From Nitrosopumilaceae archaeon (GTDB taxonomy: Archaea; Thermoproteota; Nitrososphaeria; Nitrososphaerales; Nitrosopumilaceae): a stretch of 64,000 bases of DNA. Positions 29,845 through 62,624 of the stretch are shown piece by piece. The DNA is taken from contig CBDBMG010000003.1 in assembly GCA_965207375.1 (NCBI GenBank), positions 32,001 through 96,000 on the forward strand. The letters are read 5' to 3'. How positions within the stretch are numbered: position 1 is the stretch's first letter; each line of letters begins with the position of its first letter. The position numbers were made by a program, and so were the translations under genes. Below the pieces are notes generated by a model. The model had not been told where the DNA came from. It did no database searches and was given only the letters and a program-made list of their open reading frames with translations.

Positions 29845-30039
<195 letters not shown>

Positions 30040-31410: not shown

Positions 31411-31583
31411 ATAATCGAGACATAGTCTGAATTGGTTATTGTTCAAATTGCTGAGTTTTGCATTGTTTCAGAAACCTTTGAAATGTTACATAATCACTGA
31501 GGGCGTAGTAGCCTGAGATGCAACGTAGAACCGTGGATTGCAATACATCGAACAGTTGTAATTTATTGCAATCATAAATGAAC

Positions 31584-39603: not shown

Positions 39604-39935
39604 AACTAGAATGATAAAAAATTAAAAATTTAAAAAGTAAGTAGGGATTGAACTTTGGATTCAGTAGTGCTACAAAAGGTAAGGAAACAAGGAATAAGAT
39701 TTTGGGACGAGAGAACATTCTGGCAAGAGATAATTTGTAAAAGTTTAATCCCTACTTTTGGCTCACTTCATAGGTTTGCCAAAAGTAGGGAATAAACTTT
39801 TATAAATTATCTCATGTGAGAATGTTCTCTCGTCCCAAAATCTTATTCCTTGTTTCCTTACTTTTTGTAGCACTATTGAATCCAAAGTTCAATCCCTACT
39901 TACTTTTTAAATTTATAATTTTTTATCATTCTAGT
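39604..39935. repeat. About 330-bp near-perfect palindrome (family copy 2)
   Basis: ACTAGAATGATAAAAAATT...CCCTACTTTTGGC [short loop] GCCAAAAGTAGGG...AATTTTTTATCATTCTAGT. Confidence 0.92.
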
Positions 39936-42732
39936 ATAAATGATGTCACTGACACATTATGTATTTAGTATATAGAATCTGATATTTAGTAATGGATATT
40001 ATGATTTATAACAAATAGTGAAATATTAATAGTTTGTTTTAGTGTTATCAGTATGTATTTCCCCAACAGCCATAATTGTGTAAGGCTGTCAAGAATCAGT
40101 GGAGTGGAATGGTGGAACGGAAGACTGGAATGGAATAATGAATGAATAACTTGATGCTAAAAAGCCTTTTAAGCCGTTACTGTACAGCAGTACATGAATG
40201 CTATACACTCACATCATGTAGTAATGCAATGGGAACTTGAGGCTTCAATCAATATGATACAGTTAAATCCCGGTACAAGGGTGATATCATTTATATTACC
40301 TGAAGCCTCGGTGGAGTGGATGGGATTTAATTGGCTTCTATCCCAGTGTACAATATGTAATCAACTTCCTGTAAGCGGTTTCCGCAACTATACAATATTT
40401 GATTGGCTATTTTCCAGAAAACATTTAAATTGTTTGCTCAGAATGACTCTTTAGGGGGTGACAAGTTAGCTTGCTTTTTGCTTGGGATGGTATATTTGGC
40501 AGTCGGTCAGCAGCAAAGGCAATTAACTAGGCGAAAACATACGTGCATGCACGCCCAGCAGAGAGTCGAAAAGTACGTTCTTCAAGTGATAGCAAAATGC
40601 CATTGTCTCCAACACGTCAGCCACCGTTTCAGTAATAAAACACATAAGAAAAATTGTCTATAAAGGAGCCATTCCCAGAGGGGACAATAGAAATAGCAGA
40701 GGGGACAATCAACATAACGCGCTTTGCTTTCACCTGAGGGACGTAACTATCCTTTGGTCGCTTTTTTCAGCTCTTGTATGGAGCTTTGCATTTCAATTAA
40801 TGTTATTCTTGTCTATACTGTAGCTCACGCTCGGCAGCTTACGCTCGGCTTAAAATATAAAAACCTTTGATGCATGCTAATTGTCCGACACCAAAACCAC
40901 TGGGTATTATTTTTTATAACACCCAGTAGTTTTCTTTGATCCACCTACGCACTGAGGTAGAAAATAATATAATATAAGTTAGTTTGATGATCAACAGCCA
41001 AGATAAAATGTCATTGTGGTTGATAATGCAACTAGTGTGTGACATAGATGATTTGAAAGAGTTCAAGGGTACAAGCTTTCCTGGCGAAGAATCAATTCAC
41101 TAATCTTGAAGAACAGTTACACATTACAATATATGCAAGGGGTGGAAGCGCCCATATGCTGTGTGTCACGACTCAAGTCAAAACACAAGTCACGACTCAA
41201 GTCAAAACACGTCATGACTCAAGAAGAAATTCTCCTTTCAAAGCCATGATAGTCAGCCAAAATTAATAACTGATACCCACAATCATTTGCGCAATGCTCA
41301 CGAGTCAAGGGTTAAGCGGGAAGTATACTACAAATCAAGGGACAAGGGTGATTAACAGCAGTCATGAAATTTGATCACGCAAGTACACAGCATATTGGGT
41401 GCTTCACCCCCTTGTGTATGTGAAAATATATCTTTATGGAGCCTAAATTCTTTTAAAATACATAACAGTGAATTATGAGGTACTTTGAATGATTATAGAA
41501 ATGATCTACAGCCACAATGATTTCATGACGATAGTTGTTTTACTGCAGTGTTTTTAGCAATGCATTAGCTGATATTTGCTGTTATGATACGTATGTAGTG
41601 TGCACTGATGAAAGGTACAAATCTAAAGTTACACTATTAGACATGTGTGTAAGGGGTCATTCACAATTTTCGGTTTTTATGTGAGTGTACAAAGAGTACT
41701 CTTTTTGTTAACCCTCTCCTCCCTACCACAAAGCATACTCTGAAAATATTCATGTCACATGATGATCACCATGTTTTCCTATTTTTAAAGTCTCCCCCTA
41801 ATACAAACTCTTTGTACACTTGCAAAAGTTGAATGACCCCATAAGCAGAGTATACTGGTCGCTATATACACAAGTTTAGCCTATTAATAAATATAAAATT
41901 TAATCCCTAGCTGTGTTATCAGAACCTCCACTGGTGCAACATGTTAGTCATTTTCTAGAAAAGTCTAATTTGCTATTGGGAAAGCCAATGGTAGTCTATA
42001 ATAATTTCCTCAATGCATGGGCAATCAATTTCTAATCCTTATTTTCAAGATATGTATTTATGTATGTATAACATATGTAGCTACAGTCTATCATATTCAA
42101 CCAAATAATCATCAAGCTGTACAAAAAGGAAAAAAAATTCAGTCCAGTAGTCCAGTGAAGTGAATGGAGACACCCTTATCAGAGCAGTGCTCAGGAATGG
42201 TGGCACTGGTTATTGATTTAAGAATGAGAATAATCAAGCAATAGCTTATATGGCAGCTTAGCTACAGCATTTGAGTGGTGCTATGTAAAAAGAACTAATA
42301 ATTGGTCACATATTTCTTCTTAGCTTCGTGACTCACTATCCTTCATAAATACCAAATAAATAATCAGTTAATGGTCCAGTCCAACTAGCACGTATCCTAC
42401 ACTATACTAGGCCTAAAGGCATAAACCATTCGGTTATAAAGCCATGCTGAGTTGAAATAGCAGTTCCTCACATGGGCAGTAAATTATCACCTTTATGCTG
42501 CCTTAATGAAGTATCATGCTGAGAGCATGTGAGCACTGAAGTACCATGCTGAGAGCATGTGAGCAATAAAGAGCATGTGAGCATTGAAGAGCATGTGAGC
42601 ACTGATGAGAAATTATTATTCTACTTTGCATGGCCCGTTAGCACAAGATCAACAGGTATTATTATTTGCTATGACACTTGTCAGGATAAGCACAAGAGTA
42701 AAGTATAGATCATGATTTATGCTACCAGTAAC

Positions 42733-43229
42733 TAGGGCTGGGCAATAGTGAAATTTGAACACTATCATGATAGTAGGGAAACATGTCACGATAGCAATAG
42801 TATCACGATAGTACTGAATCATTAAAAGTAGTGTAAGTAGTGCCGAGTGACAGTAAAAATTTTACTATCACGATAGTTGCAGAGCAACTATTCCGATAGT
42901 GAATACTATCCCGATAGTTAATGAAGGGGTACATTTTACTTGCCATTTGTACCAAAGTATTATAACAGTGCCATCATATAGTAATGTATATGTTATTATA
43001 CCAAAAAGCCTTGAAAGTAAACAAGTCAGCTGACACGAGGAGATGGAATTTATTTGGACAGCTTAAAGTGTAAGAATCTGTATAAAGTTTAACTTTACTG
43101 TTTGGATATGTTACCATCCATAAAACCACCAAAAATTTAATCAAGATAGTTATTTAGTAAAATATCCCGATATCAATAGTAACTTACTATCGTGATATAT
43201 CGCGCTATTGATACTATCGCTCAGTCCTA
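42733..43229. mobile_element. hAT MITE with TAGGGCTG termini
   Basis: TAGGGCTGGGCAATAGT ... ACTATCGCTCAGTCCTA; many TATC.CGATA subterminal motifs; same terminal 8-mer as the hAT at 44553. Confidence 0.65.
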
Positions 43230-43745
43230 AGTGTAAGTAGGTAACTGTTAACAAATATATGTAAAATCTACTACATAAAGCTGAAAAGCCATCCGTCTGT
43301 CTGTCCGTCTACATTCTTTCCTCGTAAGGCTGCTAACTCTGCTGTCTCTGTGTCGATTTGACTTCAGACTTGCTTGATGCAATAGCTATATCTTCTGGCA
43401 TCACAGAGTTTGTTTTTATAAGTTTCTAAGAGCTGCATTTTTCGGCACAAGTGCGTAATAGACACCTGTGTTGATAGAAACGGCCATTAACCACAGCAAT
43501 CCAGTACATAGATGGTAACGCACTTGACTATAACACCTTAGTTCAGTGGTCGAGGATTTAGTCACTGCATATTTTTTAACTTTCAGTGTAGCTGCCGTCA
43601 GTGCTCAGTGTTCTCTCTATTTTACAGTTTTTAAATGTCGCAAAGAAGTGAACACAGTGTAGGAAATAATTAGAATATAGATGTCATGTACACTGTACAA
43701 TCACGTGACATCATTAATCATGAGCACTTTCCCGCCTATCTTACA

Positions 43746-43760
43746 TGGCGCTGCGAGCAG
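43746..43760 (+). promoter_or_regulatory. Primer binding site, tRNA-Ser-like
   Basis: TGGCGCTGCGAGCAG immediately after the 5' LTR; complementary to ..CTGCTCGCAGCG-CCA, resembling the metazoan tRNA-Ser 3' end (from recall). Confidence 0.75.
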
Positions 43761-44552
43761 TTAACCAGTATCTGCACGTAAACCGAAGTCATATCAGTCG
43801 TTTAACCCGAAACATGATTCCCTGGTGCCGGTTCGAGGCACCAAGTAAGGTGATAAACCAGAGTTTACTGACAATCATTCTCCTGCCATTTTCTTTTGTC
43901 TAGATACGACGATGCTGTTTACATTCCGGCAAGGAGATCTTCCCAAGTTAGATTTACAGGTGGACCGCAGATCTGATTTTACCGCCTGTAAAGCACAATA
44001 GGATTCCTACGCCAGCTTGTCCGGACTCAATGGCGAAGACGAAGCCAAGCAAGTTCAAGCGCTAACCTTATGTTTCTCCCGCGAAATTTTAAGAATCTCG
44101 GCCTATCTGAAGACGAAAGAAAAAGTGTTAGCGCCATAATAGTCGCCATCAAACGATATATTGAAGGGCACATCAATGAATTGGTAGAAAGAAGGAACTT
44201 CCGAAAAAGAACACAACAGCCTGGTGAGACATTTGATGATTTCCTAATTTCCTTATGAGAGTTGGTGAAAACATGCAACTTTTGCTCGGAGACTTGTATC
44301 CAGAAGAACCTCAGAGATCAAGTTATAGAAGGACTACTAGAGATAGACACTGTTGAAACTCTTCTACAGGAACCTAATCTTACTCTGGCCACAACAGTCA
44401 ACAAGTGCCAGGCCCAAGAAGCGGCCAAGAAGCAGAGAGCAAATATAGCTAACCAGCAGCCAGAAACAATAGCTGCACTACAGAGGCATAGGAACCAGAA
44501 TAGTCCAGTACCTACAAGAACACCATGTCCAGGATGTGGGGCGGCTACTCAC

Positions 44553-46988
44553 TAGGGCTGAAACGAAGTATTCGAATATTCCGAAGCTTCGAAGCTGAAA
44601 CGACCTTCGAAGTTTTTGCAAGGATTCGAAGGTTCGCAAATGTAGTTATACGCATGCGCAAATAGTTTAATTAATAGTGCTGTTAAATGGCGTCGCAAAG
44701 TGAATCGAGCGGTGGTAGTAACAGAAAAGTATCGGATGTGTGGAGTTACTTTACTAAAGTAGCAGATATGAAGAAGGCTATGTGTACTATTTGTCGTAAA
44801 GAATTAGCCTATTTAGGCAGGACGACGAATCTTCGCGACCATCTTACCTCGCAGCACGCGCTTTGTTATAATGCTGATAAGAAGAATGAAAGCAAGAAGA
44901 AGACGCTCGATAGATTTATTATAAGACCTGCTAAGTGTAGTGACGCTCGTATGAAGAATATAACAGACAGGGTAACTCAGATGATAGTTCGAGACTTGCG
45001 TCCCATCCGAGTTGTTGAATGCGAGGGTTTTCGTAATCTAATCAATTACTTGGAGCCTGGATATATCGTGCCAAGCAGAAAGCAATTCACTGCTGATATT
45101 AACCTGAAGCATGCAAAATGCAAGGAAGTGCTGAAACAACGCCTGAAGAATGAAGCGCAGTTTATAGCATTAACAACAGATATATGGACAAGCTTGGCAA
45201 CAGAAAGCTATCTCTCGGTAACTGCGCATTATATTGATAGTAACTGGGAGTTGCAGGCATTTGTACTAGAAACCTTATCCTTCCCAGAGAGGCATACAGG
45301 AGTCAATATTGCTGATAAGCTAAAAGGGTTAGCAGAAAGGTGGGAAATTATGGATAGTGTTATGGTGGTCAGCCATGATCAGGCCTCTAACATGAAAGCA
45401 GCCATGGATATTTTACTTGAAGAGTGTAACTGGAAAAGCCTCAACTGTGCTGCCCATTGCCTTCAGCTGTGTATATTGGCAGGCTTCAGTATCAGTACAA
45501 TTGACAGATTATTATCAGCTGCCAAAAAGATTGTAACACACTTTCATCACAGCACAGTGGTATCAGAAGCCCTAAAACAAAAACAAGCACAGATGGGCAT
45601 GTCTTGTAAAAAATTGATCACAAGTTGTGCCACTCGATGGAATTCCACTTATGAAATGTTGGATCGGTTGTTGAAACTCCGATGGCCCATAACTGCCGTA
45701 TTGTCAGATAGTGAAGTCACAAAAGTAAGTGATAGATATTTGGATTTAAAACCAGAGCAATGGAAATTAGTCGAGGACTTGGTAACTATCCTGGAACTTT
45801 TCAGTGTTGCAACAACATTTTTTAGTTACGAAGAGAATGTTTCTATGTCAGCTGTGTTCCCAATTTTCTATGGAATACTCGACTACAGAGCTCTCAGAAT
45901 CAATAATAATCAAACAATTTAAAGAAACTGTCCCATCAAACATCATAGAAAGATTTGAACTGAGAACATTACATAATGCATATCCAATGTTGCTGACGGC
46001 TATTCTTGACCCTCGTTTTAAAAATCTTACCTTATCAAGGTACACAGACAGTGAACAACGAGAACTGAAACTATCTATTGTTGAACTGATGGAAATGTAT
46101 AGAGAATTTGAAGAAAATGAGTCAGATGTGCGAATTGTGGATACTTCTACTGAATCTGTTGTTAAACGTTCAAGAAAACTCAGTGCACTAGATAAACTTC
46201 TTGGTGAGGAGGTGATGATATCAGAACCATCCCTAACTGAATTAGATAAATATCTGGCAGAACCCCCTTCACTTCGACGAGAGGACCCACTGAAACGGTG
46301 GAAAGAAAATGCTGCTCGCTTCAAAGTAGTATCATATGTAGCTAGACGACTGCTTTGCATGCCAGCTACAACAACTCCCTCTGAGAGGGTTTTCTCCACT
46401 GCTGGGCTGACAGTTACTAAGTTAAGAAGCTGTCTGAAGCCCAATGATGCACTAATATTTTTGAACAAAAATATGGGTAAACTAAACTTAGCTAGCTAGC
46501 TACTAATGTACAATAAATTTGTACTTTTGTATTAAATTCTTACCACACTATAGCTAGATATTACAAATAGTAAGAATTACAATATGATATTGTTCTCTTA
46601 TTGCAGCAGCTTGTACTTCTTTCTTCATCCTGCACGATCGACGGTGATGTGCCACGCCCACTTTTAAACTGACTTGATACCATAGTAAAAGTCTCAAAAC
46701 GCCACAGTTAATGCATGGAAAACACCAATTTAGGCTTTAGTTAGCATTCTCAGCTATGCATGATTGCTGTATGGACAGTTGGACATGCCCATTTTTCGAT
46801 CGATCGAGCGCATAACCTCTGAACTGTCACCAAACACTTATAAATTTATCAAATAGAAAGATGAAAAACTTGAGCAGCACATGCATAGCTAAAATACAAA
46901 AAAACCTTTAAATCCGAAGCTTCGAACCTTCAGACCATTTCCTTAACGAAGGTTCGAAGGTCAAATTTCAACCTTCGTTCCAGCCCTA
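44553..46988 (+). mobile_element. hAT (Ac/ZBED-type) DNA transposon, near full length
   Basis: TIR TAGGGCTGAAACGAAG / CTTCGTTCCAGCCCTA (15/16); perfect 8-bp TSD CTACTCAC (44545-44552, 46989-46996); TTCGAA subterminal repeats. Confidence 0.97.
44687..46499 (+). pseudogene. hAT transposase (BED finger, DDE, dimerisation domain), frameshifted near 45880
   Basis: VWSYF..CTIC..TTNLRDHL..H, LTTDIWTS, HDQASNM, CAAHCLQL, TRWNSTYEML, LDPRFK, PATTTPSERVFSTAG; split across ORFs 44687-45922 and 45804-46499. Confidence 0.93.
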
Positions 46989-49900
46989 CTACTCACCCAG
47001 GTGGTCGATCTCAGTGCCCCGCATATAGCCAAACATGCTTCCATTGTCAGAAGGTTGGCCACTTTGCGAAAGTCTGCCGTAGCAAACCTAGTAGTCACAA
47101 CCCTCACCCCACGTCATCTCAGGTACCAGCCAGCACGGCTACTATTAGACAATAGACACCTGACTATTTCCAACATTAGGAATGTCACAGCCAATGAGCC
47201 AGCACCCTTGGTCAAGGTACTTGTCACCTCGGCCAATGGTTCTTGCAAACTACAAGCCCTCCCAAACTCAGGGGCTGACATATCTGCAGCTGGGAAAGAA
47301 ACCTTACAAACCCTTAACGAACATGTGAACAGCCTCATACCCTCCAGGGTCATTCCTAAAACCGCAAATGGGATGAAAAATATACCCGCTTGGGAAGATA
47401 CCTGTGAAGATTCAGTTAGGTTGCTATGAGCACAGTGAGGAACTGCACATTTATCCCAACATTTCTGGAACCCTACTTTCATGGAAAGCTTGTAAGAGTT
47501 TAGGAATCCTGCCTGACTGTTACCCCAATCCCATCACACCTAAACAACAGAGTATTAATCAGATTACCGAAACCTTGTCAATCCTGGAACCACCCACACT
47601 TGACAACATCATGAAGGAGTTTCCCAGCGTCTTTGATGGGCAGATTAGAACCATGACGGGTGAAGAATTCCATATTTCACTTACAGATAATGCTAAACCT
47701 TTTTGTGTGAACACGCCTCGTTCTATACCATTCATGTACCGCGACAAACTTAAAGCAGAGCTAGAGTTGTTACAGGGACAAAACATTATCACACCGATTA
47801 CTGAGGCCACAGAGTGGTGTGCCCCTATAGTCGTAACACCTAAGAAAAATTCAGACAACATCCGCATGTGTGTAGACCTATCACATTTGAATCGTTGCGT
47901 ACGTTGAGAGCGATACCATTCGCCCACCCCTGCAGAAGCCATTGCTGACATTGCAGCAACTAATGCCAAATACTTCACTGTGCTTGATGCCATGAAGGGT
48001 TACCACCAATGCCCTCTTGATGTTGACAGTCAACTCCTAACCACCTTTATTACTCCCTTCGGGAGATACAAATATCTACGTGCTCCATACAGCATCTCCT
48101 CCATATCGGAACACTATAACCGCCGTATGGCAGAAGCCCTGGCAGGCCTATCTGGATTCTGCAGGATAGTAGATGATATTGTCATATATGACAGCACTAT
48201 TGAAGACCATGTGAGTCATGTGAGACAGTTCTTACAATGCTTCACTGAGAAGCAGATTGCCCTTAACCCGCAAAAGTGCAAGTTTTGTGTAACCAAGGTG
48301 ACGTTTGCTGGATTTCATCTATCCTCTGAAGGGTATCAAGTTGACCAGTCCATAACAGGTGCAATATCACAGTTCCCCAAACCAACCAACCGCACAGATT
48401 TACGCTCCTTCTTTGGACTTGTCAACCAGTTGTCCTCCAGTATTAACACAGTAGCCACATTGTTAACACCACTCAGACCTCTCCTGAGCACTAAGAATGA
48501 TTTTCTGTGGAGTGATAATCATGAGAAAGCGTTTGCAGCAGCAAAGGATGCACTCACTGCAGTACCAGTATTGTCCTTTTTTGATCCCAACAGACCTACT
48601 CGCTTGTGTACTGATGCAAGCCGACAAGGGCTTGGTTTTGTCCTACAGCAGCAAAGCAATGATATCACATGGAATCTCATCCAAGCTGGCTCTCGCGTTA
48701 TGCGGTAATCGAATTAGAGATCCTGGCAATATGCTGGGCTATACAGAAATGCAAGCTCTTCTTGACAGGGTTGCAGCACTTTTCTGTCATTACCGATCAT
48801 AACCCACTTGTTCCAATCATCAACAACCATCGCCTTGATGAGATAGAAAACCCCCGGCTACAACGGCTAAAACCAGGTTGATGTCGTACAACTTCACCGC
48901 TAAATGGCTAAAAGGTAGCAAAAATGAGGCCCCTGATGCTCTGTCACGCAACCCAGTATCGGATCCAGAGCCCACTGACACACTTGCAGAGTTGGATGTA
49001 AACGATCAAGCAGAAATGTCAATTGCACAAATCAGAGCTCTACATGGAGAGACCCATGTAAATCGCCACCTCCAAGACCTTCGGCAACAAGCAGAACAAG
49101 ATGAGGAATACCAACAGCTACGTACCGTCATTCTACAGGGATTCCCCGCCCACCGCCATCAATTAACAGAATCATGCAGACGATACTGGAATATTCGTGA
49201 GCACCTTTCCTTAGATGACGACTTAATTGTATATGGTTGCAGACTCCTAATACCAGCCAAAATGCGTCGGCAAGTTCTTGCACAACTCCATGAATCTCAC
49301 CAAGGCACAGTGAGAACAAAACAGCGAGCACGTTTATCTGTATACTGGCCAGGTATAGATAATGACATTGATATAATGTCATTCTCGCTTGCCAAACATG
49401 TCAGGACAGTCTCCCCTCCAATGTTAAAGAGCCACTCATTCAAAAACCAAGACCTGACCGACAATTTCAGGAAATTGCCATTGATTTCTGCTCTTATGTC
49501 AGCAGAGATTATCTCATCATAGTGGATTGCTTCACAGACTGGCCAGTAATAATTTCAATGGACCACGGCACCACCACCTCACAGCTGATCACAGTCCTAC
49601 GTCAGTCCTTCTGTCGTACTGGCATACCAGAGATTATATGGTCAGATGGAGGACCCCAGTTTACCTCCAATATGTTTCAGGAGTTTGCAAAACAGTGGGG
49701 ATTCTCACACAAAGTTTCAACACCACACTATCCACAAAGTAATGGAAAAGTGGAAGCCACTGTGAAATCCATGAAAAGAATCATCCGCATATCATGGAAT
49801 CGACAATCACTCAACGAGGACAAGTCCTGTCGAGCACTGCTGCAGTACAGGAACACACCCTCTTGCAAAGATAGCTTATCTCCAGCACAAAAACTGTATG

Positions 49901-50829
49901 GACGCCCGCCCCATCCAGGACATCATACCAGCTCACCACCGATCCTTTTCAGCAGAATGGCAACACAAAGCAGAAGCAGCAGAACATCAGGCACAACAGA
50001 CATTAAAATCCTCCAAAGAATACTACAACCAACACGCCCACGCTCTTCAGGAAATTCAAATTGGCTCCAACGTCGCCATTCACAACAACAGAACAAAACT
50101 TTGGGATATATATGGCATTGTGACTTACATCAGCCCACACAGACGCTATCATGTTAAAATACTAAGTGGCAGAGTCCTGGTAAGAAACCGTCGCTTCCTG
50201 CACTGTCGTGTCCCAGCCTCAATTCCAGTAAGTACCCAACAACAGCTAACCTCCCACATCACACCTACACCAGAGCCACCATCAACACGCCGGTCAACAA
50301 GATGTACACGCCCACATAGCAGACCCATAGAGGACCCTAACTGGAACTGATCACAGCTACCGCACAAACTTCAGCATATATATATTTAGCATTTGTGATT
50401 AGCTCCACCCCAAATGCTCGAAGAGGGGAGATGTAGGAATATAGATAATGTCATGTACACTGTACAATCACGTGATATCATTAATCATGAGCACTTTCCC
50501 ACCTATCTTACACACAGTATAGTCAGAATATCTATGCACTAGCTGTAAGTTGAGGACTCGATAAGTAGGGGTGTCCTTCAAAATTGAATTGATGCTAAAG
50601 CTACTTATAGCTGTGAAAGAAAACCCAGCATGCAACAGGTAGACATGCAACTACTGCAGCACTAGCATTTCAATTGGCTAATCAATAGATTAAGCTGTTA
50701 CAAGGTGACAAGTTGGTACAGCCTACTACAAGATGTTAAGTAAATAGTGTAAATAGACAAGGTGTTATAAGTAAACATTGGTACTCATGGCAACTACATA
50801 GCCATAGGCACCATGGTATGTTAACCCTG

Positions 50830-51090
50830 ATCAGCTAGGTAGCTATAAGTAGGCATAGGAGACTAGGTAGACATAGGAGACTAGGTAGGCATAAGAGACT
50901 AGGTAGACATATAGGACTAGGTAGGCATAGGAGACTAGGTAAGCATATAGGAGTAGGTAGACATATAGGACTAGGTAGGCATAGGAGACTAGGTAGGCAT
51001 AGGAGACTAGGTAGGTAATAGGAGACTAGAAGACTAAGGCATATAGGAGACTATAGGTTGGCATAGGAGACAGGTGGGCATATAGGAGAT
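50830..51090. repeat. About 18-20-bp degenerate tandem repeat inside the Helitron
   Basis: GGCATAGGAGACTAGGTA variants, more than 10 copies. Confidence 0.85.
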
Positions 51091-51504
51091 CATAATAGAT
51101 AGGGCATTAGTAGTTAAGCTTATAGGGGACCACAATACAGTCATAGATAGTGTAGCTATCATGCATGCAAATGAGACTACACGGCCTACACCCTGCACTA
51201 CAGGGCAGGTAGGGCTGTGCAATATATTGATAATTATATATAGTATTAACAAAGCTACTATATTTGGGACCTACAAACAGAAACTGTGATACCGAAATAT
51301 CAATAATTGCCGAGCACCTTAGCATGAGGCACATAATCGTGACACTATTCTCGGTTTGCGTACATATATATATGTGCATCACGCTTAGGAATGCTCCCCG
51401 TGACCCTGAAAACCACTAGGTAACCATACAAAGTAGAGTCGACGAATATTTAAGCGCATAACGAATCAGCGCCCAAAGAAACTGTATACTGACAGTCGGT
51501 AGCG

Positions 51505-51717
51505 ATGTCAGATAATGCGCTTGAAGTTCAACAGCGGAAGAAAACCCTTGCACGCAATAGAAAGAGAAAACAAAGGCTTACTGCAAGCGCTCAAGATAGA
51601 TCGACTGAATTGAGCCAGCAAAGGAAACGCATGCGATTGCTAAGAGATAGGGAAACACCTGCTAGACAGTCTGCTAGATTAGAGGCTATGCGTCAACGTA
51701 CTAATACATCATCATAA
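51505..51717 (+). CDS. Truncated Helitron RepHel N-terminus (STPR-like repeat), 70 aa
   Basis: MSDN..ARNRKRKQR..RKRMRLLRDRETPARQSARLEAMRQR; basic helical repeat lying within the Helitron termini. Confidence 0.55.
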   Translation: MSDNALEVQQRKKTLARNRKRKQRLTASAQDRSTELSQQRKRMRLLRDRETPARQSARLEAMRQRTNTSS

Positions 51718-51801
51718 TTAAATCAAATCATCTAATTAATACATCATCACAATTAAATAAATTATGTAACAATATTCACTTTCCTGCTTGACATAACATA
51801 T

Positions 51802-52365
51802 GTGACCGGCTCTGCGAAAATGTGCATAGTTCGCACCTGGTAATAATTAGAGAAACACCTGTTTAAAGATTTTAAATTAACATTGCTAGCTTTTGCTCAT
51901 ACTAGGCCGCTTTTGTTTAGCAGAACTGGATTTAATAATGTATTGAATAGAATACAGTTTACCTTTGAAGTTGTTTCTTGGTTGATTTCAGGCCTTTTCA
52001 GACGATTTTTTCGAAGGTGTGCATCAATTTTAGCCCAGTGTTACGAGGGGGTGGGCGGGTGGGAGGAGGGGAGGGGAGGGTGGGGAGCAGATGGTTCTGA
52101 CCATACAACCAGGCCGAAGGGACATCATTCCGGTCAAGGGTAGAATTCCAGACCAATAACGCCCAATTGGTGCGCTCCACAGGTGCCAATGTGTCAGTCA
52201 TGGTACTACAAGGCCCCAAATACTCACCTCAGAAAAGCAGACCACTTGAGTCTGGCCATAGGAGACACGGTGTGTGCATAGCTATTGAGTGTAGCTATAA
52301 GCTGGATCAAAACAATGAATTTAAATTTTTGTGTGAACTATACACATTTTTGCAAATCCGGTCAC
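51802..52365. mobile_element. GTGACC...GGTCAC element nested in the Helitron
   Basis: ATAT-GTGACCGGCTCTGCGAAAATGTG ... CACATTTTTGCAAATCCGGTCAC-ATAT. Confidence 0.75.
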
Positions 52366-52662
52366 ATATACGTATACACATATCTGCAAATACATTTCAA
52401 TATAGCTACATACATATTTCAATTACATGCACTATCGCACGAGGCGTTCTGCACAATGTGTATTCCTAGTACTGAATATATAGTGAAGGAATAGAGTTTG
52501 AAAATTTAGCTACAAAGTAATGTTGTGGATAGGGGTTGGAATCTAGCTAGCTATGTGTAACTTTTCCCACTCTTATCTGCTTACCAAAATTTTTATTATG
52601 CAGTATTCACCATTTAACAGACACTGCTTTATATTCAGTAAAAATATCTATATTTAGTAATA

Positions 52663-53436
52663 CCAAGAGTTCATAATATATAGAGAGAGGAGAGTATCCA
52701 ACGCTCATATTGCCTGTTCAAAACACAATGCGTTAAGTTGTTGCATCATCTCCCAGATATTTTAGTATAATTTCAGTAAACTTTGATAACTGGCTTCACC
52801 GCAAAAGATTCGTTGATAGGTGTTGATTTATCAAAGAGAACACCACAAATTATTTCTTCTATTTAAACCCACTTTATACTCCAGTACTTAGTGATAAAAT
52901 TTGAGCCAAAATTGCGCTACTTTCGTGGCGATACTGCAGTCAAGATGGCGGCTTCTAGTGTAGACGGGAGAGGAAATTTCGACCAAGATTCAGACGAACG
53001 AGAGTGTAATGGTGCTCATAAGCGGCTTAGGTTAATCAAATGAAGCCAGTTACCAAATGGATGGAGTACTGCACGCAAGCAGCGTTACAGTTAGTTTTCC
53101 CGCCATTAATGCGGACGAGCCTTTCGAGTCTTTGGAGGTGACGTAGCTATTTAACTCGTCCAGAGATGGCGTAACAGTGCCAGGTACATGTGCACGTAGC
53201 AAGGCTATACCTGCCATAGATCCTGTATGGTTAAGGATCTATGGCTATACAAATTATTCCGTGGTATTTAAGCGCACGTTATATTGCAATAGCAGGCAGG
53301 TTGCGTGCTTATAGGATTTCAAGCAAGTTAACACCATTTGGTGATGATGGGTATTACATAATAACTTAACGCAGTGTTTTAAACGGGCAATAGAGCGTTG
53401 GATACTCTCCTCTCTCTATATATTATGAATTCTTGG
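52663..53436. mobile_element. Non-autonomous element with about 45-bp TIRs and a 5-bp flanking duplication
   Basis: CCAAGAGTTCATAATATATAGAGAGAGGAGAGTATCCAACGCTC / GAGCGTTGGATACTCTCCTCTCTCTATATATTATGAATTCTTGG; TAATA on both sides. Confidence 0.85.
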
Positions 53437-54219
53437 TAATACCAAGGTATCAACTCATAAAAATACCGAATAACTGTTTTTGGCAATACCACAATAAGTA
53501 CACCTTGTTATATCAAAAAAGTAAAGTTAGTTATCATCTCACAAGTTAAACTTTCATCAGCCGCTTTGGTTACTAGTACATGTTTACACCCTCAGTGCAA
53601 ATAAGTCGGTACTATAGAATTAAAATTAAAATGTTAGCCTTGCTGCATGCATAAGATAGGGCTACCTGGCCAGCTTTAAACCACCAAAATTATCAGTTAG
53701 TACTTCACGATATGACTATCAAGATACGTAGTAAATTGCACTATCATGATAGTTGACCACTTTGACGATATTGAACTATCATACTGTCACCCAGCCCTAC
53801 ATTTGTCATAGTAACAGTTCATATTACAAATGTGTTTTGGTCACAGTGTATTTACCTCATTCTTGGCCTGTTCTCTGAGTCGATGTGGTAGTCACTTAAT
53901 ATTGTGACTCATGGATCTTCTCCTCATGTGTCGAGGAAGTGTTTGGAAAGTTCTTCTTGTACTGCCATGTTGTGAAATAGCAGCTGTCATATATGTAGTT
54001 CCATTGCTCTAGCTTGAACAAAATCACTTACACAAATACCCCTAGGACCTGCAGTATCCCGTACATCACTACCGGTTACGTTCTTTGGCTGTGCCTTAAG
54101 CCTCTTTTCTCGTCTCTTTTTCCTTCCAGTAACACGCTCTTCTTCATTTTCACCTTTGCTTTTCTTTTCTTCATCCTTTTCTGATTAGGTAACGCAGTAT
54201 TTATAGGCGTTTCTTCCAT

Positions 54220-54276
54220 CTACAACGTGCATTTTACTATTCTATCTAATGCACACCAAGTACACGTGCGGGAGTG
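54220..54276. promoter_or_regulatory. Putative bidirectional promoter/5' UTR spacer between POP1 and RIDA
   Basis: 57 bp between divergent ATGs; contains CACGTG (E-box-like) and CAACGTG. Function inferred from geometry only. Confidence 0.5.
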
Positions 54277-57200
54277 ATGGCTGTGAGAGAGGCAGTTCGT
54301 TCCGTTGTCAAGAAAATCATTAACACTAGTACTCCGCTTGCTCCTAAGCCAATTGGACCTTACAAGTGAAAAAGCTAATAATACGATACTGTTGTATCAT
54401 AGGGTAGCCTATATATATCAGTACTAATATCATGCTGTCCATTGTAGCCAAGCCATTGCTGTGAGAGAAACATTGTGCCTATCTGATCAAATTGGATTAG
54501 ATCCTAATGTAAGGACACGGGGCTAGTCATATCTACTCAGTAACTGTATAACAGGCAAACTGGTCTTGATTAGCGGAGTCATTGTTTATTTCTCTGCCCG
54601 GCGCTACATCAGCACTCAAACACTAGCTACTGCCTCAACTTTAATTTTAAATAAGAAAAATAATCCCACATCAAAATTGCAAAAATTACTGATGATAAAC
54701 TGACTGACAAGTACTGACATAGTCATTTGGTCACTGATGTCATCGGTTTAGTCTGCTGCTTGATCAGAGTCAGGATCACTTAGCCACTAAAATTGAACCT
54801 TCCGTGAATTGTGTATTCATGACCTAATATGTGTTGTCAGTGTTCTTGCTGGCTGCTGGGCAGATTATGCACTTTTGAACCGCAGGTGCATGTCATGGTA
54901 CCTTTGTCTGTGAAGTTGGTAGCTATATGCATGCTTGCATGGTTGCTTTGTTTGTGTGCGTGTATCTTCCAATGGATTATTTTGTATGCCGTATACGGTA
55001 CAGCAAAATGTTATTATCACAATTGTCTGAAAGATTGTGCATAGGTAGGTGATGCCGGCTTTAATTTGCAGTGTAGCCTAGCTGTAGCTATAACAATTGC
55101 ATCGGCATGCTACTGGATTGCCACCTTATAGCTATGATGTTCTTTAATTCCTTCAGCCATGTAATAGTAGCTGGAGCAGCTGGACAGTGGTACTACAATA
55201 CATTAGTTGACTGCATTCCTCTGAATGTTTAATTCATCAGTAGCTGCTAATATGACAAAGCTGTTAGATTATAGTGTGATCCAAATTTTGAATGCTTCAG
55301 ACTTACCAATCAGATTGCTAAATGTTGTGATGTACGTACAAGCTACAATGATGTTGTGTCCAAATACATGTCATGTGCAATGTAGCCATAGTAACCACAC
55401 AGCTACTTGGATTTGTGTGGTTGACTCATTCTTATTTTGGATGATATATATACCTGCTAGTATATCCATACATGTAGCTAGCTATATAGCTAATGTAACT
55501 ATATTCTTAATACGTATATAACTTTATAGCTAGCTATAATGTTCTCAACATATAGACCATGGAATTGATCAGTGGAGATGTTTGTGATCAGACCAAACAG
55601 GTATATATATATAGCTACTACCTTATTTGGCTGTTTCTTTAAATTGTAGCTAATTTTGGATTATACAACATAGAGACAAATAGCTAGCTAGCTATAGTGT
55701 TTTATTGCATGGGCTTAGCTACTAGCGTATATAGCTATCTAACATGTTAGCTTAACTGTATCAGTCTATGATAATGTGCACATTAGCTATAGGATGATGT
55801 CATTTAACCATTAATTTACAGTCTTTATTATGCACTCTTATAGGCTCTTAATAATATGAAGAATGTATTGGAAGTTGCTAATTCATCTATGGACAATGGT
55901 TAGCAGCCATTACAGTAGAAATATAATAGCTACTACACGTGTAGAGGGAAACTTCGGTGGGAGTAAGATTTGGCGAATTTATCTACTTTTCTGAGCAAAA
56001 GATTTTACCATGAAAATTTATGTTATCAATAGCTATAATGACTTGTGCAAGAGGGGGACTAGCTCCGTAGCTGGTCATGCAAGGTTGTTGCTAGGCTGTG
56101 CCATACCAAATGCCAAGTTAAGGTGCCAAAGTCAACACTCATCAGATCCCACAAAAGGTGTAGACAGCAGGACGGTATAGTCATGGCAGAGCTCAAAATA
56201 ATGGTCTGTTACAGGTCATTTTCCAGCCCACTTTAGTGTATCAGATCCAATTTGGTAGGACAAATTTACTGGGGAAGCCAATGATAGTCTATAATCATGT
56301 TCCTATTTTGAATGAATGACTGACCAATATTATTAGCAATATCAGCAATGCTACTTGCAGGACCAATATTATTAGCAGTATTACTTGTAGCAACAGCAAT
56401 GCTATGGGTGTTTGAATGGTAATCATAAACTATAGCCAATTCAAAATAGCTCTATAGCATAACCATAATGCTACGTATAACTGCATACTGTAGCTATAGA
56501 GGGAAACGTTGATGAATATGGTGAATGTTGCTAATAATATTAGTCCTGCAAGTAGCATCGTTGTTGCTACAAGTAACACTGCTAATAATATTGCTATATA
56601 TATAGAAGATATTCATAAGGCATGGCATCATGCAACTACATTGAAAATTGAGCAGATATAATAATGTACAAGTGTAATGTAAAGTTCTGCCAAACTATAT
56701 AGTTTTACTATAACCAACTGATGATACCTTAGTATGAATAATACTGTAAGAGCAATTCCTTTATAGTCCCACTGTATGCATATGCCTTCCATTAGTTAAG
56801 CTGCTGCAGCAGAAGAATTAATGATCTGACATCAGTGGAAAAGAGACGGTGGGGATTTCCGCCTGACACCCTATCTTTCCAATATGATTATTAATTCAAA
56901 TCCTCTCTATACTGTAGCTATAGCGGGGTATTTTGACGAGCTAATTTGACATGATGAACAGCTATAGCATGCAGTTGGGGTTTAAAGGTCAAAGCTGTAG
57001 CTAATTCAATAACTGTGAAGGGGGCGGGGCACTGGGCACTTGCCCCCACAAAATTTGCTCTGTCCCCACAACTTTGAGTAAGTTCAGCCGGCCCTGCATC
57101 AATGTGGCTACTAAATGATTCCTTTAAAATAGCAATTGGTCAATCAGTTTTTATCTTGTTCTTGTTTGTTTCCTACAGTTGTGAAGGTGACAATATTTTT

Positions 57201-59021
57201 AGCTGATATTAATGACTACCCTGCAGTCAATGAAGTATATAGTCAGTGTAAGTAGTTGGATCATGTGATCAATTATAGTAGCTCATGTGAAATCTATACT
57301 GTGTGTAGCAATATGATGAAGTGATAACCATGTAGTTAATATGTTATGCATGCACATGTACATGATGCTGTACATGTTACTTGACAACCTTTACCAGCAC
57401 TTGTATACATTCATGTCATTTGATAATCTAGCTATGCTCCTGTACATATATAAAACTTTGTTCAAATAGCTGAACAACATGTACGCACTACATGTTATCC
57501 TCAATGTGTTGTGCAATGATGTTGTATTTCCGATTGTGTAGATTTTACTAAAGACTATCCTAGCAGAAGTGCGGTTGCAGTTAGTGCTTTACCAAAGGTA
57601 ATCATAAATAGCTGTAGCTATAGCAACCGGGTTCATGCCACATAGCTAAATAGTACCCTCTATTGATATCATTGTCTGTCATGTTTTTGCAGGGTATAGG
57701 GAAATGTACACGTATATTAACAGATCATAGTTGATTTGTCACTGGTAGTGGCTGTTGTGAAACAGTATGTTTGTGGTATGAGAAGAAAGGTAACTTAGGG
57801 TACCCTTTAAAGTTTGACTCTGGTGAGACTTACACAACCTCTAAAGCAAGGCAAGTGACTCTGGGCAGGATTTCATGCACCTTGGCTCCTCATTTCCTCC
57901 ATGCTGAGTGATAGGCCCTGTATATTATGCTATAGTATATAAAGCAATAAATAAACAAATACGTAGCTCAGTATGAGACTAGCATGCAAAACCCCCATAG
58001 CTATGGATAGCTACTGCCAAGCCTCACAGCTATGCAGGCAGGGTCAGTTGTGCAGGCTAGGTCACACTTACTATCATGCAGTATAGCAATTAGTTATATA
58101 CATCATATCACATGTTGCTAGGTCACACTTACTATCATGCAGTATAGCAATTAGTTATATACATCATATCACATGTTGCTAGGTCACACTTACTATCATG
58201 CAGTATAGCAATTAGTTATATACATCATATCACATGTTGCTAGGTCACACTTACTATCATGCAGTATAGCAATTAGTTATATACATCATATCACATGTTG
58301 AAAGCAAGTAAATTTTATTTGTTGCTGCATCACTATGTCAACTCTCGATATCATGTGTACTCTAGTGGCGGCTAAATCATAAATTTACTTGATAGCAGGG
58401 TTAAAAGTGTCACATGACCCGGTCATTTGGGTCACTTTTTGTCCAGGTCTTGTGGGTCAACATTTTCAATGCAAAGTATCCAGGCAAAGTGACCCAGATT
58501 TTATTGAAATTTAGAAAATGGCGTCTGAAAGTTCAGACTGGCTTACATAGAAGTAACTAAAGCTGCCAGAACAAATGCCACCACAGGAAGTGTCGTCTCA
58601 AGTATGTGTGTTCTAAAGGTAGCTGTGCTCAGGAACAATTCTGTGATACTACTCTTAGTAAAGAGGTGTTTGGAATCACCTGTTGTTCTATTTGTAAAGT
58701 GTGTAGTTACTTTGTACAAAACAAGAGTAAATGGAGAAAAGAAATTCCTGGCACTAAAAATCCACTTAATCATTTATAGTGCTGTTCACACCAAGTGCAG
58801 GACTATGTGGGTTAATTAATTAATTAATTAAATATTTACAGTTTATAAGTGATTTTGATCTTAAAATCTGGGTCACATCAACACTTTCAACCCTGGAAAC
58901 CAATCAATTTGTCTGATCTATAGCCATATCTGTGTATATACTCATTTCTTGTACACTGCAGGCAGCCAAGGTGAAATTGGAAGCAATTGCTATTGTACAG
59001 AACAATGCTAGGATAAATTAA
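54277..59021 (+). CDS. RIDA: RidA/YjgF/UK114 family 2-iminobutanoate/2-iminopropanoate deaminase, 144 aa, 7 exons
   Basis: Exons 54277-54365, 54448-54508, 55556-55600, 55844-55898, 57179-57247, 57542-57597, 58962-59021, all GT-AG and in phase: ..APKPIGPYNQAI..LSDQIGLDP..QTKQALNNMKNVLE..VVKVTIFLADINDYPAVNEVYSQYF..PSRSAVAVSALPK..VKLEAIA. Confidence 0.92.
56105..56186 (+). pseudogene. Degenerate 28S rRNA fragment
   Basis: GTTAAGGTGCC...CTCATCAGATCCCACAAAAGGTG-TAGACAGCAGGACGGT..CATGG matches the recalled conserved LSU core (CTCATCAGACCCCAGAAAAGGTGTTGGTTGATATAGACAGCAGGACGGTGGCCATGG) with a deletion of about 11 nt. Confidence 0.75.
58057..58300. repeat. 61-bp tandem repeat, 4 copies, in RIDA intron 6
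   Basis: GCTAGGTCACACTTACTATCATGCAGTATAGCAATTAGTTATATACATCATATCACATGTT, essentially identical copies. Confidence 0.95.
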
Positions 59022-59059: not shown

Positions 59060-59927
59060 CTATTCCTGCTGATATACGCTACTACGTAAAGGTTTTGTTT
59101 TTGACACAAAGATCTGATAATTCACTGGAGGCTCTTCGGACAACGCCCTGTCTTTTGGAGGCTGGCTGCTGCGTCTTCTCGCTTCCTCTGCCTGTAGCAA
59201 CATTATTTAGTATATAAACTAGTCACAAGGAGCCATTAGTACGTACATGAACTAGTCACAAGGAGCCATACATTACGTACATGAACTAGTCACAAGGAGC
59301 CATACATTAGTACATGAACTAGTCACAAGGAGCCATACATTAGTATATGAACTAGTCACAAGGAGTTATACATTAGTACATGAACTAGTCACAAGGAGTC
59401 ATACATTAGTATATGAACTAGTCACAAGGAGTTATACATTACGTACATGAACTAGTCACAAGGAGTTATACATTAGTACATGAACTAGTCACAAGGAGTC
59501 ATACATTAGTATATGAACTAGTCACAAGGAGTTATACATTACGTACATGAACTAGTCACAAGGAGTTATACATTAGTACATGAACTAGTCACAAGGAGTT
59601 ACACATTAGTACATGAACTAGTCACAAGGAGCCATACATTAGTATATGAACTAGTCACAAGGAGTTACACATTAGTACATGAACTAGTCACAAGGAGTTA
59701 CACATTAGTACATGAACTAGTCACAAGGAGTTGCACATTAGTACATGAACTAGTCACAAGGAGTTACACATTAGTACATGAACTAGTCACAAGGAGCCAT
59801 ACATTAGTACATGAACTAGTCACAAGGAGCTATACATTAGCGTCGTTCATTGAAGTAGCGTCTGATAATATAGTAACTTCAGTAGCCATTCGTCAGGCAC
59901 GGATTCCGTTGAAGATGTACAACCCAT
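59060..59927 (-). CDS. Candidate small two-exon protein gene (61 aa open; about 74 aa with MGCTSS N-terminus if a 1-nt deletion is restored)
   Basis: Exon 59836-59889 MATEVTILSDATSMNDAN joins in phase 0 (GTATAG..CTACAG) to 59060-59191 AEEARRRSSQPPKDRALSEEPPVNYQIFVSKTKPLRSSVYQQE*; upstream ATG at 59927 gives MGCTSSTESVPD one base out of frame. Confidence 0.45.
59215..59840. repeat. 33-bp minisatellite, about 19 copies
   Basis: ATGAACTAGTCACAAGGAGCCATACATTAGTAC with variants; fills nearly the whole predicted intron. Confidence 0.96.
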
Positions 59928-60082: not shown

Positions 60083-62624
60083 ATGTTACTAGATAACGAC
60101 TCGGTAAATGTTAACACGCTGTTTGTTTCAGTTTTCATTAAATACTAGTTTCTCACTGAACTCGGAAAATTATTCTCTAAAACTAGACACGTGGGCTCCC
60201 TTACCTTGACCATGAAAAAATGTAAGTTGTATAAAAATTATTCTGTATTTACACATTGTGTGCATCAAATAATCGATTTGCTTAACCTGTGGTGATAGAG
60301 CAATGATACACTAATGTAGATTCATGTTTAGTGAAAACATTCAGCTTCCATCACATATCATATAACAATATTGTGTTTATTGTTTCGACTCCAGTGCTCA
60401 GTTCTTCAGCACTGGAGCAGCTGTGTATTGCCTGTTTACATTCTATTGTGATAATTACTAAGGGTACTAAATGTATAGTTTTATGCAGGGGGCATATCAA
60501 GTTTCGATTACCATCGATAATTCTTGGATAATCATCAGTGTTGGTCATTTTGAGTGTATAATTACTGATACCCACAATACTTATTTTTCTAAAATTTAAA
60601 TATGAGTGTCACAAATACTAGCTGGTTAAAATAATTTTTATGCAACTTAACAATACAAAGACAGAAGTTGTAAGTTGTTTATTGCATAACGGTTGATACT
60701 TATACACTCATAATACAAGAATAATCAATAGGGACACACACCCTGCATAACAAGACTTAGCATGAAATAGACTTTGTACGAGGGGAGAGGTCTGCTACTA
60801 CACAATGTGATGTATGTAGAAGTCTTTTGTGTTCACCAAATAAGGGCATGCGGCATGCATATTCATGTGATTTATTATGAAACAGTTTTATGACAATAAT
60901 ACAGAGGTTATAACCTGATTCCAGAATCATACCAGTTGTGATTTGAAATCATATGATATCCCTTGACTTTGCTAATACTGTTCTCTACTGTCTATTGTAA
61001 GTCTATTGTACTTGTCAGACAATGGACGTAGTAAGCCATGTCCAAGGACAAAGTCACGCAATCAATATCTTCGTGAACCAGAGGAGAACCTTTGCCTATT
61101 AAGAGCTAGTAATGGGAAAAAGAAGATATCAACTGTGGTAAGATGATGAATGTTATTGTGAAGAAAATTGTAAAATTATTTGTAGATAAGCCATCGAGAG
61201 GTGACAAGATTTCAAATGGTTAGTAAATAATGTAATTATATTATAATTAGCTAGCATATTATGGTAATTATAAATTGAAATACTAATTACTGCAATGAAT
61301 AGTGAATCCAATATTGAAATACCTGTACTAACAGATCACTATAGTTTGAAATAGTGATGCACTGATACACATAAATTGAATACCGATGCCAATACTGATA
61401 TACAAAATATAAGAATTAACATGGCCGATATCAGTACTTCAGTAATTAATGTCTACTTTTGGCATTCAGTGTTTTCAGGGAATAAGAGATCAGCCATACA
61501 AGGGGGTGTCACTCCCGTACCTTCTGTACTAACATCTGTGACCGCGGTCAAAATTGAAGTCAAGAGTCAAGCATAAAAAGCCAGTAAGTCAAAGGATAAG
61601 CAGTGTTGGTGAAGGTTCTTTAGGTCAACAGTCAACGTGCTATGCAAATAGTCAAATACCACAATCAATACTAACGTAGTGGATGAAGTTTCACGGTTTA
61701 GTTTATGGGAACACGTGCGAAATATATTAGTCGCAAAGAATTGTATTACAGTCAAAGTTCAGACGAAAAATGTAGCAGTCAAAGGTCAAGCGTCATTTTC
61801 AGTGAAAGTCAAAGGTCAAGAGCCATATTCCATTTTGACCAAGTTTGACCGCAGTCACAGATGTTAGTACAGAAGGTACGGGAGTGACATCCCCTTGAGC
61901 CATACTTGCAATAGAAGACAATTAAGATTGCTTTCATGACCTATGTATTATGCTGAAAAGTTAGACTGCTTCATTGGAGTATATCAATTAAGTAATGTGC
62001 ACGGTGACTGTTCTATTAGAGTATAACGATCTTTTGCTGTTTGATGCCAACACTCCCATCATTACGCTAATGCTTTTAGCTACCTATTATGCTAGTCTTA
62101 TGTGGCCAAACCTTTTGCACAGGCAGTATTGATTTTAGAGGTGATAAGCGCCCTTGTGAAATGGGTCTGGAACAGTTCACAGACCTTACTGGATTTTTAG
62201 TTTATAGGTGTCAACTGATTCAAAGGTATGGTTAAACTTTACTACTTAATGCTGAATCAACAGCTAATGAGTTCATAATTCACGTGTTTTGACACACTTG
62301 CCATTGATATCTGGACATCTGGTACAACACAGCAAAATTCCGTCACTATAAATATCTACGTATGGAAGAATGGGAACTTCCTTCTAGCGACATGCACTAA
62401 AAGGTGGGCACACAACTGTAATGAGGATAGCCGATGACGTATGTACATGTTGTTAAGCATGTAACTTATCTGTATTAAGTGTGTATTATCTATGCTTTAA
62501 TGGTTCTTTATTACTTTAATGATTCTATCTTTAGGCCTACGCTAATCTATTAAAGGTCAATATGGATGCACTGAAGAAACATGACAAACGGACTAAAACA
62601 CAAAAGACTAAAGCAACTCATTAG
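60083..62624 (+). CDS. SRP14: Signal recognition particle 14 kDa protein, 111 aa, 5 exons
   Basis: Exons 60083-60103, 60149-60221, 61019-61137, 61186-61218, 62535-62624: MLLDNDSFLTELGKLFSKTRHVGSLTLTMKKYNGRSKP..NLCLLRASNGKKKISTVISHREVTRFQMAYANLLKVNMDALKKHDKRTK..; canonical splice sites, open frame. Confidence 0.95.
61499..61897. mobile_element. P-element-like MITE in SRP14 intron 4
   Basis: About 53-bp TIR CAAGGGG.TGTCACTCCCGTACCTTCTGTACTAACATCTGTGAC.GCGGTCAAA; 7-bp TSD AGCCATA; internal GTCAA repeats. Confidence 0.85.

Follow-up and report, generated by a model that had tools for sequence, protein, structure and literature searches.

The 64-kb window analysed here, positions 32,001 to 96,000 of contig CBDBMG010000003.1 (assembly GCA_965207375.1, deposited as a Nitrosopumilaceae archaeon), is eukaryotic DNA. 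It has a GC content of about 37% and a CpG observed/expected ratio of 0.51, and it contains GT-AG introns, microsatellites, satellites and transposons. Within it two genes diverge from a short spacer, one a copy of the gene for POP1, a subunit of RNase P/MRP, and the other a member of the RidA family. In coordinates counted from the first letter of the window, the POP1 ATG lies at 54219-54217 on the minus strand and the RidA ATG at 54277-54279 on the plus strand, leaving 57 nucleotides (nt) between them (54220-54276). The RidA ATG is the earliest in its frame downstream of a plus-strand stop at 54247-54249. An initial annotation of this DNA had placed both start codons and the 57-bp spacer of the head-to-head pair exactly, and reading of the sequence agrees with it. 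The interval that it singled out, 53856-54508, is bounded by two exon ends, that of POP1 exon 1 (donor GAG/gtaaat) and that of RidA exon 2 (AAT/gtaagg). We propose that the locus is a divergent pair in which RidA is open and POP1 is an unprocessed pseudogene, and that its arrangement was probably inherited from an ancestral POP1-RidA pair.

POP1 exons were mapped with homologous representatives as probes and by reading the splice junctions. The gene has four exons joined by GT-AG introns (Table 1), across which the domain order POP1_N, POPLD, POP1_C is kept. POP1_N (Pfam PF06978) is matched by frame C of exon 1 (E 2.6e-09, profile positions 19-45) and by exon 2 (E 4.8e-11, positions 124-194). 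Exon 4 matches POPLD (PF08170, E 7.3e-29) and then POP1_C (PF22770, E 6.1e-09). Both the FQxLPRHMRRRxxSHN and the WLxTHIWHAKRF motifs of POP1_N are present. Exon 1 aligns with residues 118-149 of human POP1 (E 4.6e-07) and with 78/111 full-length POP1 representatives. The 423 codons of exon 4 that precede an in-frame TAG were compared with solved chains; human POP1 was recovered at E 3.2e-41 and no other chain at E 0.001. Of human and yeast POP1, the human protein is clearly the closer to the window copy. These matches, together with Ribonuc_L-PSP in the facing gene, support the gene identities first proposed, POP1 and the RidA family.

An uninterrupted full-length POP1 reading frame is absent from the window copy. 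The initial annotation had bridged a single frameshift, and this understates the damage. The four exons together carry six disabling lesions. Exon 1 alone has two one-base frameshifts and an in-frame TGA, and in exon 4 there are another two such frameshifts and a TAG. Three frames are needed to read exon 1. Frame A carries the ATG and stops at 54076-54078, frame B carries ...GPRGICVSDFVQARAMEL and frame C carries MTAAISQHGSTRRTFQTLPRHMRRRSMSHNIK. Frameshift 1 is probably located in the A-rich run right after codon 12. Because ATG 54219 reaches the POP1 frame only through this frameshift, it is likely the former start codon of a dead gene and not a demonstrated start. The residue opposite the TGA is arginine in 75/78 aligned homologues (111 representatives were queried); the remaining three have M, K or L. 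Human POP1 reads NVK and then R at this site. Frameshift 4 exchanges the conserved tail ...RFAFVNILH for a wrong, longer one.

Both stops arose by C-to-T changes (CGA-type to TGA, CAG to TAG), and several amino acid replacements are Arg to Cys or Arg to His. The CpG observed/expected ratio of POP1 exon 4 is 0.23. This pattern suits a methylated, CpG-depleted gene body. An alternative genetic code was ruled out as the source of the stops: TGA stands opposite Arg and TAG opposite Gln, and the RidA exons and a 411 amino acid (aa) open reading frame (ORF) of a hAT transposon use the standard stops. No nuclear code is known in which TGA is read as Arg.

To gauge constraint on this copy, exon 4 was compared with its relatives. 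A protein search in the similar-length class returned 18, each spanning exon 4 as a single ORF of 407-640 aa with POPLD and POP1_C; their identities descend gradually from 96% to 38%. A search directed at longer relatives gave nothing. The closest intact relative, P0152, has 640 aa and is 96% identical. With P0002 as outgroup, 16 private amino acid changes fall to the window copy and 6 to P0152, with 4 ambiguous and 589 identical positions. The counts were 16 vs 6 with outgroup P0153 and 15 vs 5 with outgroup P0154. A hand-calculated two-sided binomial test of 16 vs 6 gives p of about 0.05. Four of the private window changes fall in columns that are invariant in 13 relatives: R to C in YYVLRS, R to H and N to K in CHRGNP, and K to T in LNKKG. 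P0152 has no changes at these columns, and a fifth such column is the site of frameshift 4.

The 24 intron codons just upstream of the exon 4 acceptor have an identical translation in the window and in P0152. Neutral divergence between the two must therefore be small, so that a protein divergence of 4% implies little constraint. By rough estimate, 4% protein divergence and six lesions are about what unconstrained drift would yield; P0152 was compared as a protein, and the figure is not a computed ratio of nonsynonymous to synonymous rates (dN/dS).

Several points weigh against this reading of the locus. The rate excess of 16 vs 6 over P0152 is borderline, and the comparison with the 82%-identical P0002 is non-significant (26 vs 19; 19 vs 12). 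P0152, known as a protein only, may be an orthologue from a sister species, a paralogue or an allele. Each of the four frameshifts is the loss of a single base, a typical long-read consensus error, and for frameshifts 1 and 2 the surrounding sequence is A-rich or an AT repeat. POP1 splice sites and exon order are also perfectly kept. It could be supposed from the type of the frameshifts, the intact splice sites and the borderline rate that POP1 is functional, that its lesions are errors of assembly or base calling, and that a live bidirectional POP1-RidA promoter operates here. However, two of the lesions are substitutions, and two stop-creating substitutions together with 16 private amino acid changes amount to an error density foreign to polished assemblies. 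Frameshifts 3 and 4 lie outside simple repeats and homopolymers. Elsewhere in the window, tandem arrays reach 98-100% perfection, with an array of 61 nt x 4 and an (AC)55 run at 100%, which speaks for an accurate assembly. Comparable damage is missing from RidA exons 1-6 and from the 411-aa hAT ORF. We consider a sequencing artefact very unlikely and the window POP1 very probably a true pseudogene. It is an unprocessed one, as introns and exon order are retained. Annotating a POP1 gene at this locus would be wrong. POP1 is normally single-copy and essential, and an intact POP1 is expected elsewhere in the species.

The RidA gene was modelled with seven exons and six GT-AG introns, encoding 138-149 aa without a stop or frameshift. 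Exons were submitted singly as contiguous sequence, exons 1, 2 and 6 being only 18-29 aa long, hence the weak scores in Table 1. The TIGR00004 scores of exons 5 and 6 are far under the whole-protein cut-off of 106 bits, as expected of fragments. Exon 6 aligns with several RidAs along their stretch F-x-x-Y-P-A-R-S-A-V-x-V-x-x-L-P-K (E 0.16 at best). The exon matches, to animal and bacterial RidA chains, are individually weak, but they agree with one another and are collinear, which makes the identification as RidA reasonably safe. According to the portion of PMC7311433 available, eukaryotes have RidA-family members only, mostly as single copies. This statement and the N-terminal likeness to goat UK114 favour the window gene as a putative animal RIDA orthologue.

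The state of this RidA is uncertain, and this too counts against the arrangement as we interpret it. The family's S/A-G-Q motif is altered, with LSDQIG in the window and ISGQIG in both matched chains (1oni, 9n80). This motif, which follows the second strand, is as a rule near-invariant in the RidA family. The last exon is ambiguous, and model b gave no PDB or NCBIfam match. In the same part of PMC7311433, Arg105 of bacteria (Arg107 of eukaryotes) predicts imine-deaminase activity, and Tyr21 and Glu122 are substrate-binding. The window RidA has the Tyr (IGPY) and the Arg (YPSRSAV). An Asp takes the Glu position under model b only, in a loop one residue shorter; model a lacks it.

Queried with exon 5, a search for relatives of RidA yielded only one sequence, the 76-aa fragment P0001 (ENA/JGI/Logan contigs). 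P0001 is a RidA fragment of a related organism. Exon 5 is identical to it at 23/25 positions and exon 4 at 11/18 (about 61%, our own count). The exon 4 part of P0001 is presumably closer to human RidA than is the window exon 4. In P0001 the counterparts of exons 4 and 5 lie in one ORF with about 15 residues between them, so the intron there is short, vs 1280 nt in the window.

These features raise the possibility that the entire block is a decaying duplicate or degenerate haplotype, with RidA also non-functional or losing function and the pair a fossil copy. Asp replaces a Gly of S-G-Q that both matched solved animal RidAs keep, the final strand reads VDLS and not IEIE, and the best last-exon acceptor yields an unrelated tail. 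Exon 4 has diverged from P0001 whereas exon 5 has not to the same degree, and the window is rich in transposons and satellites. At the lesion density of POP1 (about 1 per 420 nt), a RidA coding sequence of 420-450 nt would by our own estimate escape damage about one third of the time. Against this, all seven exons are free of stops and frameshifts, the six introns are GT-AG, and the substrate-binding Tyr (IGPY) and Arg (PSRS) are kept, with Asp at the Glu position (roles as given in the available text of PMC7311433). A fossil pair is conceivable, although we think it is probably not the case.

The spacer carries a CACGTG 9-14 nt upstream of the RidA ATG. A TATA-like octamer lies beyond it, within the first POP1 codons, and it may have a role in a promoter, as judged from sequence. 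It occurs 7 times per 64 kb vs 10.75 expected. Promoter use of this region is weakened by three observations. CpG enrichment around the spacer is mild (14 CpG per 400 nt, which ranks about 101st among 1272 windows), both motifs were recognised post hoc, and CACGTG is common in the window (23 copies). Across the whole window, 7.8 copies of CACGTG are expected from dinucleotide-preserving shuffles, and 0/100 shuffles reach 23; this excess exists despite CpG depletion. The most CpG-rich 400-nt windows lie at 44450-45100, 43700-44200, 3050-3550, 39100-39600, 51250-51750, 52800-53300 and 28500-29100. They contain 20-27 CpG at observed/expected ratios of 1.0-1.7, vs a mean of 7.1 CpG, and all are richer than the POP1/RidA spacer region. 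Some are in transposons (the hAT 5' end), and others could be unmethylated promoters or young insertions.

Human POP1 and RIDA are head-to-head, which is one half of the initial claim that the window holds the same gene pair as human. The other half, adjacency, is documented: pop1 is a conserved neighbour of ridA from shark to human, and within 1 Mb around vertebrate ridA the order and orientation of genes, with matn2, pop1 and nipal2 nearby, are strikingly conserved (PMC7311433, in the part available). None of matn2, nipal2, erich5 and stk3 was found in the window among 231 ORFs of at least 48 aa outside both genes and 108 shorter ones, a scan that small exons can escape. The longer class was drawn from 234 listed ORFs by leaving out three frames of a 17-nt satellite.

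In the window the two genes are head-to-head with a short upstream region between them. Some human divergent pairs are retained in other lineages, 66 in fly, 50 in worm and 18 in yeast (PMC12672016), and divergent-pair retention over long distances is documented in ancient metazoan microsynteny (PMC3514665), both as stated in the excerpts available. We estimate that chance would place two named genes side by side in this orientation about once in 10,000, given a genome of some 20,000 genes. Because retained pairs are documented and chance is this small, inheritance is much likelier than chance adjacency, the basis being the window and the vertebrates. The adjacency could nevertheless be non-ancestral, with POP1 (or a duplicate of it) and RidA joined independently in this lineage and the likeness to vertebrates coincidental. 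There are two data points only, and the other vertebrate neighbours were not detected in the window, which has SRP14, Abhydrolase_2 and an ankyrin exon instead. With the chance estimate and the documented retention both against it, independent joining is improbable. In the main text of Dávila López 2010 (PMC2871058) and of PMC12672016, as far as available, POP1 and RIDA/HRSP12 are not named. A literature search found no discussion of POP1-RIDA/HRSP12 as a divergent or syntenic pair in the text available outside the vertebrate synteny of PMC7311433; supplementary pair tables were not covered.

The course of events that we favour begins with an ancestral POP1-RidA pair of the type that vertebrates still keep, from which the head-to-head arrangement would have been inherited. 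The spacer was probably once a compact bidirectional promoter. POP1 at this locus would then have been unconstrained for about as long as it has been separated from the intact, 96%-identical P0152. In that time it would have acquired two C-to-T nonsense codons and four one-base deletions, and Arg, Asn and Lys residues that are otherwise invariant would have been replaced. A paralogue, another locus or the other haplotype would supply the essential function of POP1. For RidA, continued use of the short upstream region is probable, in which case its core promoter would overlap the dead 5' end of POP1.

The initial annotation had seen here a bidirectional promoter linking an RNase P/MRP subunit to RidA. 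This claim is not upheld, as POP1 has two nonsense codons and four frameshifts and its intact counterpart lies elsewhere; with six lesions, a working, co-expressing bidirectional promoter cannot be inferred at this locus. The accepted, universally conserved role of RidA is metabolic, the deamination of enamines and imines. A connection of RIDA to RNase P/MRP rests on a few human cell-line studies, which describe RIDA as an adaptor between YTHDF2 and RNase P/MRP and report that POP1 co-precipitates with RIDA and YTHDF2 (PMC11391272; adaptor role of RIDA/HRSP12 from Park et al. 2019, as cited in PMC8509007; both in the parts available). It is doubtful that POP1 and RidA are a co-regulated pair older than the invertebrate/vertebrate split that was selected through an ancient adaptor role of RidA, bringing RNase P/MRP to YTHDF2-bound N6-methyladenosine (m6A) RNA. 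Were it so, the adaptor role would be no mammalian peculiarity, and the window would have kept the old architecture in spite of its dead POP1. A functional link of the locus to m6A decay is speculation. The window adds one non-vertebrate case of the arrangement, with a POP1 pseudogene, and alone it cannot prove a functional link. If the POP1-RidA pair were retained across animal phyla, this would be independent evolutionary evidence for purposeful co-expression, and it could be tested in simple animals.

Other elements surround the pair (Table 1). POP1 intron 1 contains a nested transposon, a gypsy-type retroelement whose gag region is split by the hAT transposon. No pair of long terminal repeats of at least 80 nt was detected by which the retroelement might be dated. 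RidA is followed on its own strand by exons of SRP14, a gene that does not neighbour RIDA in vertebrates. An Abhydrolase_2 exon follows the 3' end of POP1 on the strand of POP1; a scan of the ORFs of 24 aa or longer in 26500-33300 revealed no other exon of the Abhydrolase_2 gene. A weak TFIIIC zinc finger match just downstream of the POP1 3' end is below the cut-off and may be chance. An Rfam scan of the window gave no match. Tandem arrays and long (TG)n/(AC)n runs are scattered through the window, and one array lies in POP1 intron 2.

Table 1. Coordinates of the POP1 pseudogene, the RidA gene, the spacer between them and other elements of the window.
Feature	Coordinates	Strand	Description
POP1 pseudogene exon 1	53856-54219	-	364 nt (3n+1); ATG in frame A, POP1_N in frames B and C
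POP1 intron 1	38639-53855	-	15,217 nt; contains the interrupted retroelement
POP1 exon 2	38408-38638	-	231 nt, open; second half of POP1_N including WLQSHIWHAKRF
POP1 exon 3	35900-35987	-	88 nt, open; DSSYHGYVELLDSQGDIITVLQPMMSKQV
POP1 exon 4	33354-35192	-	about 1.8 kb; POPLD and POP1_C; former stop TGA 33356-33354
Frameshift 1	within 54076-54184	-	frame A/B overlap; frame B open from 54184, without ATG
Frameshift 2	53991-53992	-	two bases (AT) between CAT and ATG; homologues have one codon (ELH-x-MTAAIS)
In-frame TGA	53892-53894	-	in POP1_N motif SHNIK-stop-LPHRLR
In-frame TAG	33919-33921	-	Gln (NDM-Q-LSTL) in P0152, P0002, P0153, P0154 and P0155, the relatives shown in the alignment
Frameshift 3	33593-33594	-	AA, remnant of an Asn codon; P0152 has DQSNDITAAL
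Frameshift 4	about 33374-33376	-	one base lost in the Ala codon of RF-A-FVNILH, eight residues before the stop
TATA-like octamer	54198-54205		TATTTATA plus, TATAAATA minus; 72-79 nt upstream of RidA ATG, in POP1 codons 5-8
Spacer	54220-54276		57 nt; CACGTG 54263-54268, ACGTG 54225-54229, 7-nt inverted repeat 54227-54233/54248-54254
RidA exon 1	54277-54365	+	MAVREAVRSVVKKIINTSTPLAPKPIGPY, then split codon; solved RidA E 0.046, goat UK114 E 0.73
RidA exon 2	54448-54508	+	QAIAVRETLCLSDQIGLDPN; human RidA residues 24-43, E 1.3
RidA exon 3	55556-55600	+	TMELISGDVCDQTKQ; placed by frame, splice sites and collinearity only
RidA exon 4	55844-55898	+	ALNNMKNVLEVANSSMDN
RidA exon 5	57179-57247	+	VVKVTIFLADINDYPAVNEVYSQ; PF01042 E 1.8e-06, 28.4 bits vs 27.3 cut-off; TIGR00004 E 6.3e-05
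RidA exon 6	57542-57597	+	FTKDYPSRSAVAVSALPK; key Arg of the family; TIGR00004 E 0.03
RidA last exon, region	57693-57798	+	two candidate models, a and b
RidA last exon, model a	57693-57734	+	strong acceptor (57692); GIGKCTRILTDHS, then stop; unrelated 13-residue tail
RidA last exon, model b	57724-57798	+	weaker acceptor (57723); IIVDLSLVVAVVKQYVCGMRRKVT, then stop; IIVDLSLVVAV... resembles the final strand ...IEIEAVA of the family
Nested transposon	43992-50350	+	in POP1 intron 1
Gypsy-type retroelement, gag pieces	43992-44555	+	zinc knuckles
Gypsy-type retroelement, gag/pol	46889-50350	+	RVT_1, RNase H, integrase; several frameshifts in the element
hAT transposon	44687-46499	+	BED finger and hAT dimerisation domains; one frameshift
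SRP14 exons	60149-60292, 60976-61143	+	Pfam profile positions 6-33, 49-84
Abhydrolase_2 exon	29845-30039	-	phospholipase/carboxylesterase, acyl-protein-thioesterase-like, E 7.5e-11
TFIIIC zinc finger (PF12660)	32469-32645	-	E 0.0034
Ankyrin-repeat exon	16182-16364	+	PF00023 E 1.1e-04; single exon
17-nt satellite CCTGTACAATGGATAAT	30557-31411		about 49 copies, 94% match; open in three minus-strand frames
Array, 33 nt x 19	59207-59840		
Array, 167 nt x 3.8	25844-26476		
Array, 62 nt x 5	36726-37036		in POP1 intron 2
Array, 61 nt x 4	58056-58300		100% perfect
(TG)n/(AC)n runs	21011-21101, 21941-22050		

Four known systems may be set beside this locus. In human cells m6A RNA is cleaved through the YTHDF2-RIDA(HRSP12)-RNase P/MRP pathway, in which POP1 and RIDA, the proteins of the window pair, both take part. 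Unlike that pathway, the window presents genes alone; their adjacency is no evidence of binding, and this POP1 copy cannot make protein. In the vertebrate RIDA (HRSP12/UK114)-POP1 neighbourhood (human 8q22; elephant shark to mammals) the two families are adjacent, as they are here. The window differs in that POP1 is a pseudogene and the ATG-to-ATG spacer is just 57 nt, and its RidA model has seven exons vs six in salmon (PMC7311433, in the part available).

As in the conserved divergent pairs described in the available text of PMC12672016 and PMC3514665, two unrelated housekeeping genes have a very short common upstream region, and their pairing seems to have lasted through much evolutionary divergence. 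One partner in the window is dead, in contrast to those pairs, so that the selective reason for the pairing no longer acts here. Finally, the POP1 copy resembles other unprocessed pseudogenes, duplicated or unitary, in keeping its introns, in carrying several frameshifts and stops, in its raised rate at conserved residues and in having an intact, near-identical counterpart. An unprocessed POP1 pseudogene that has stayed opposite RidA is unusual.

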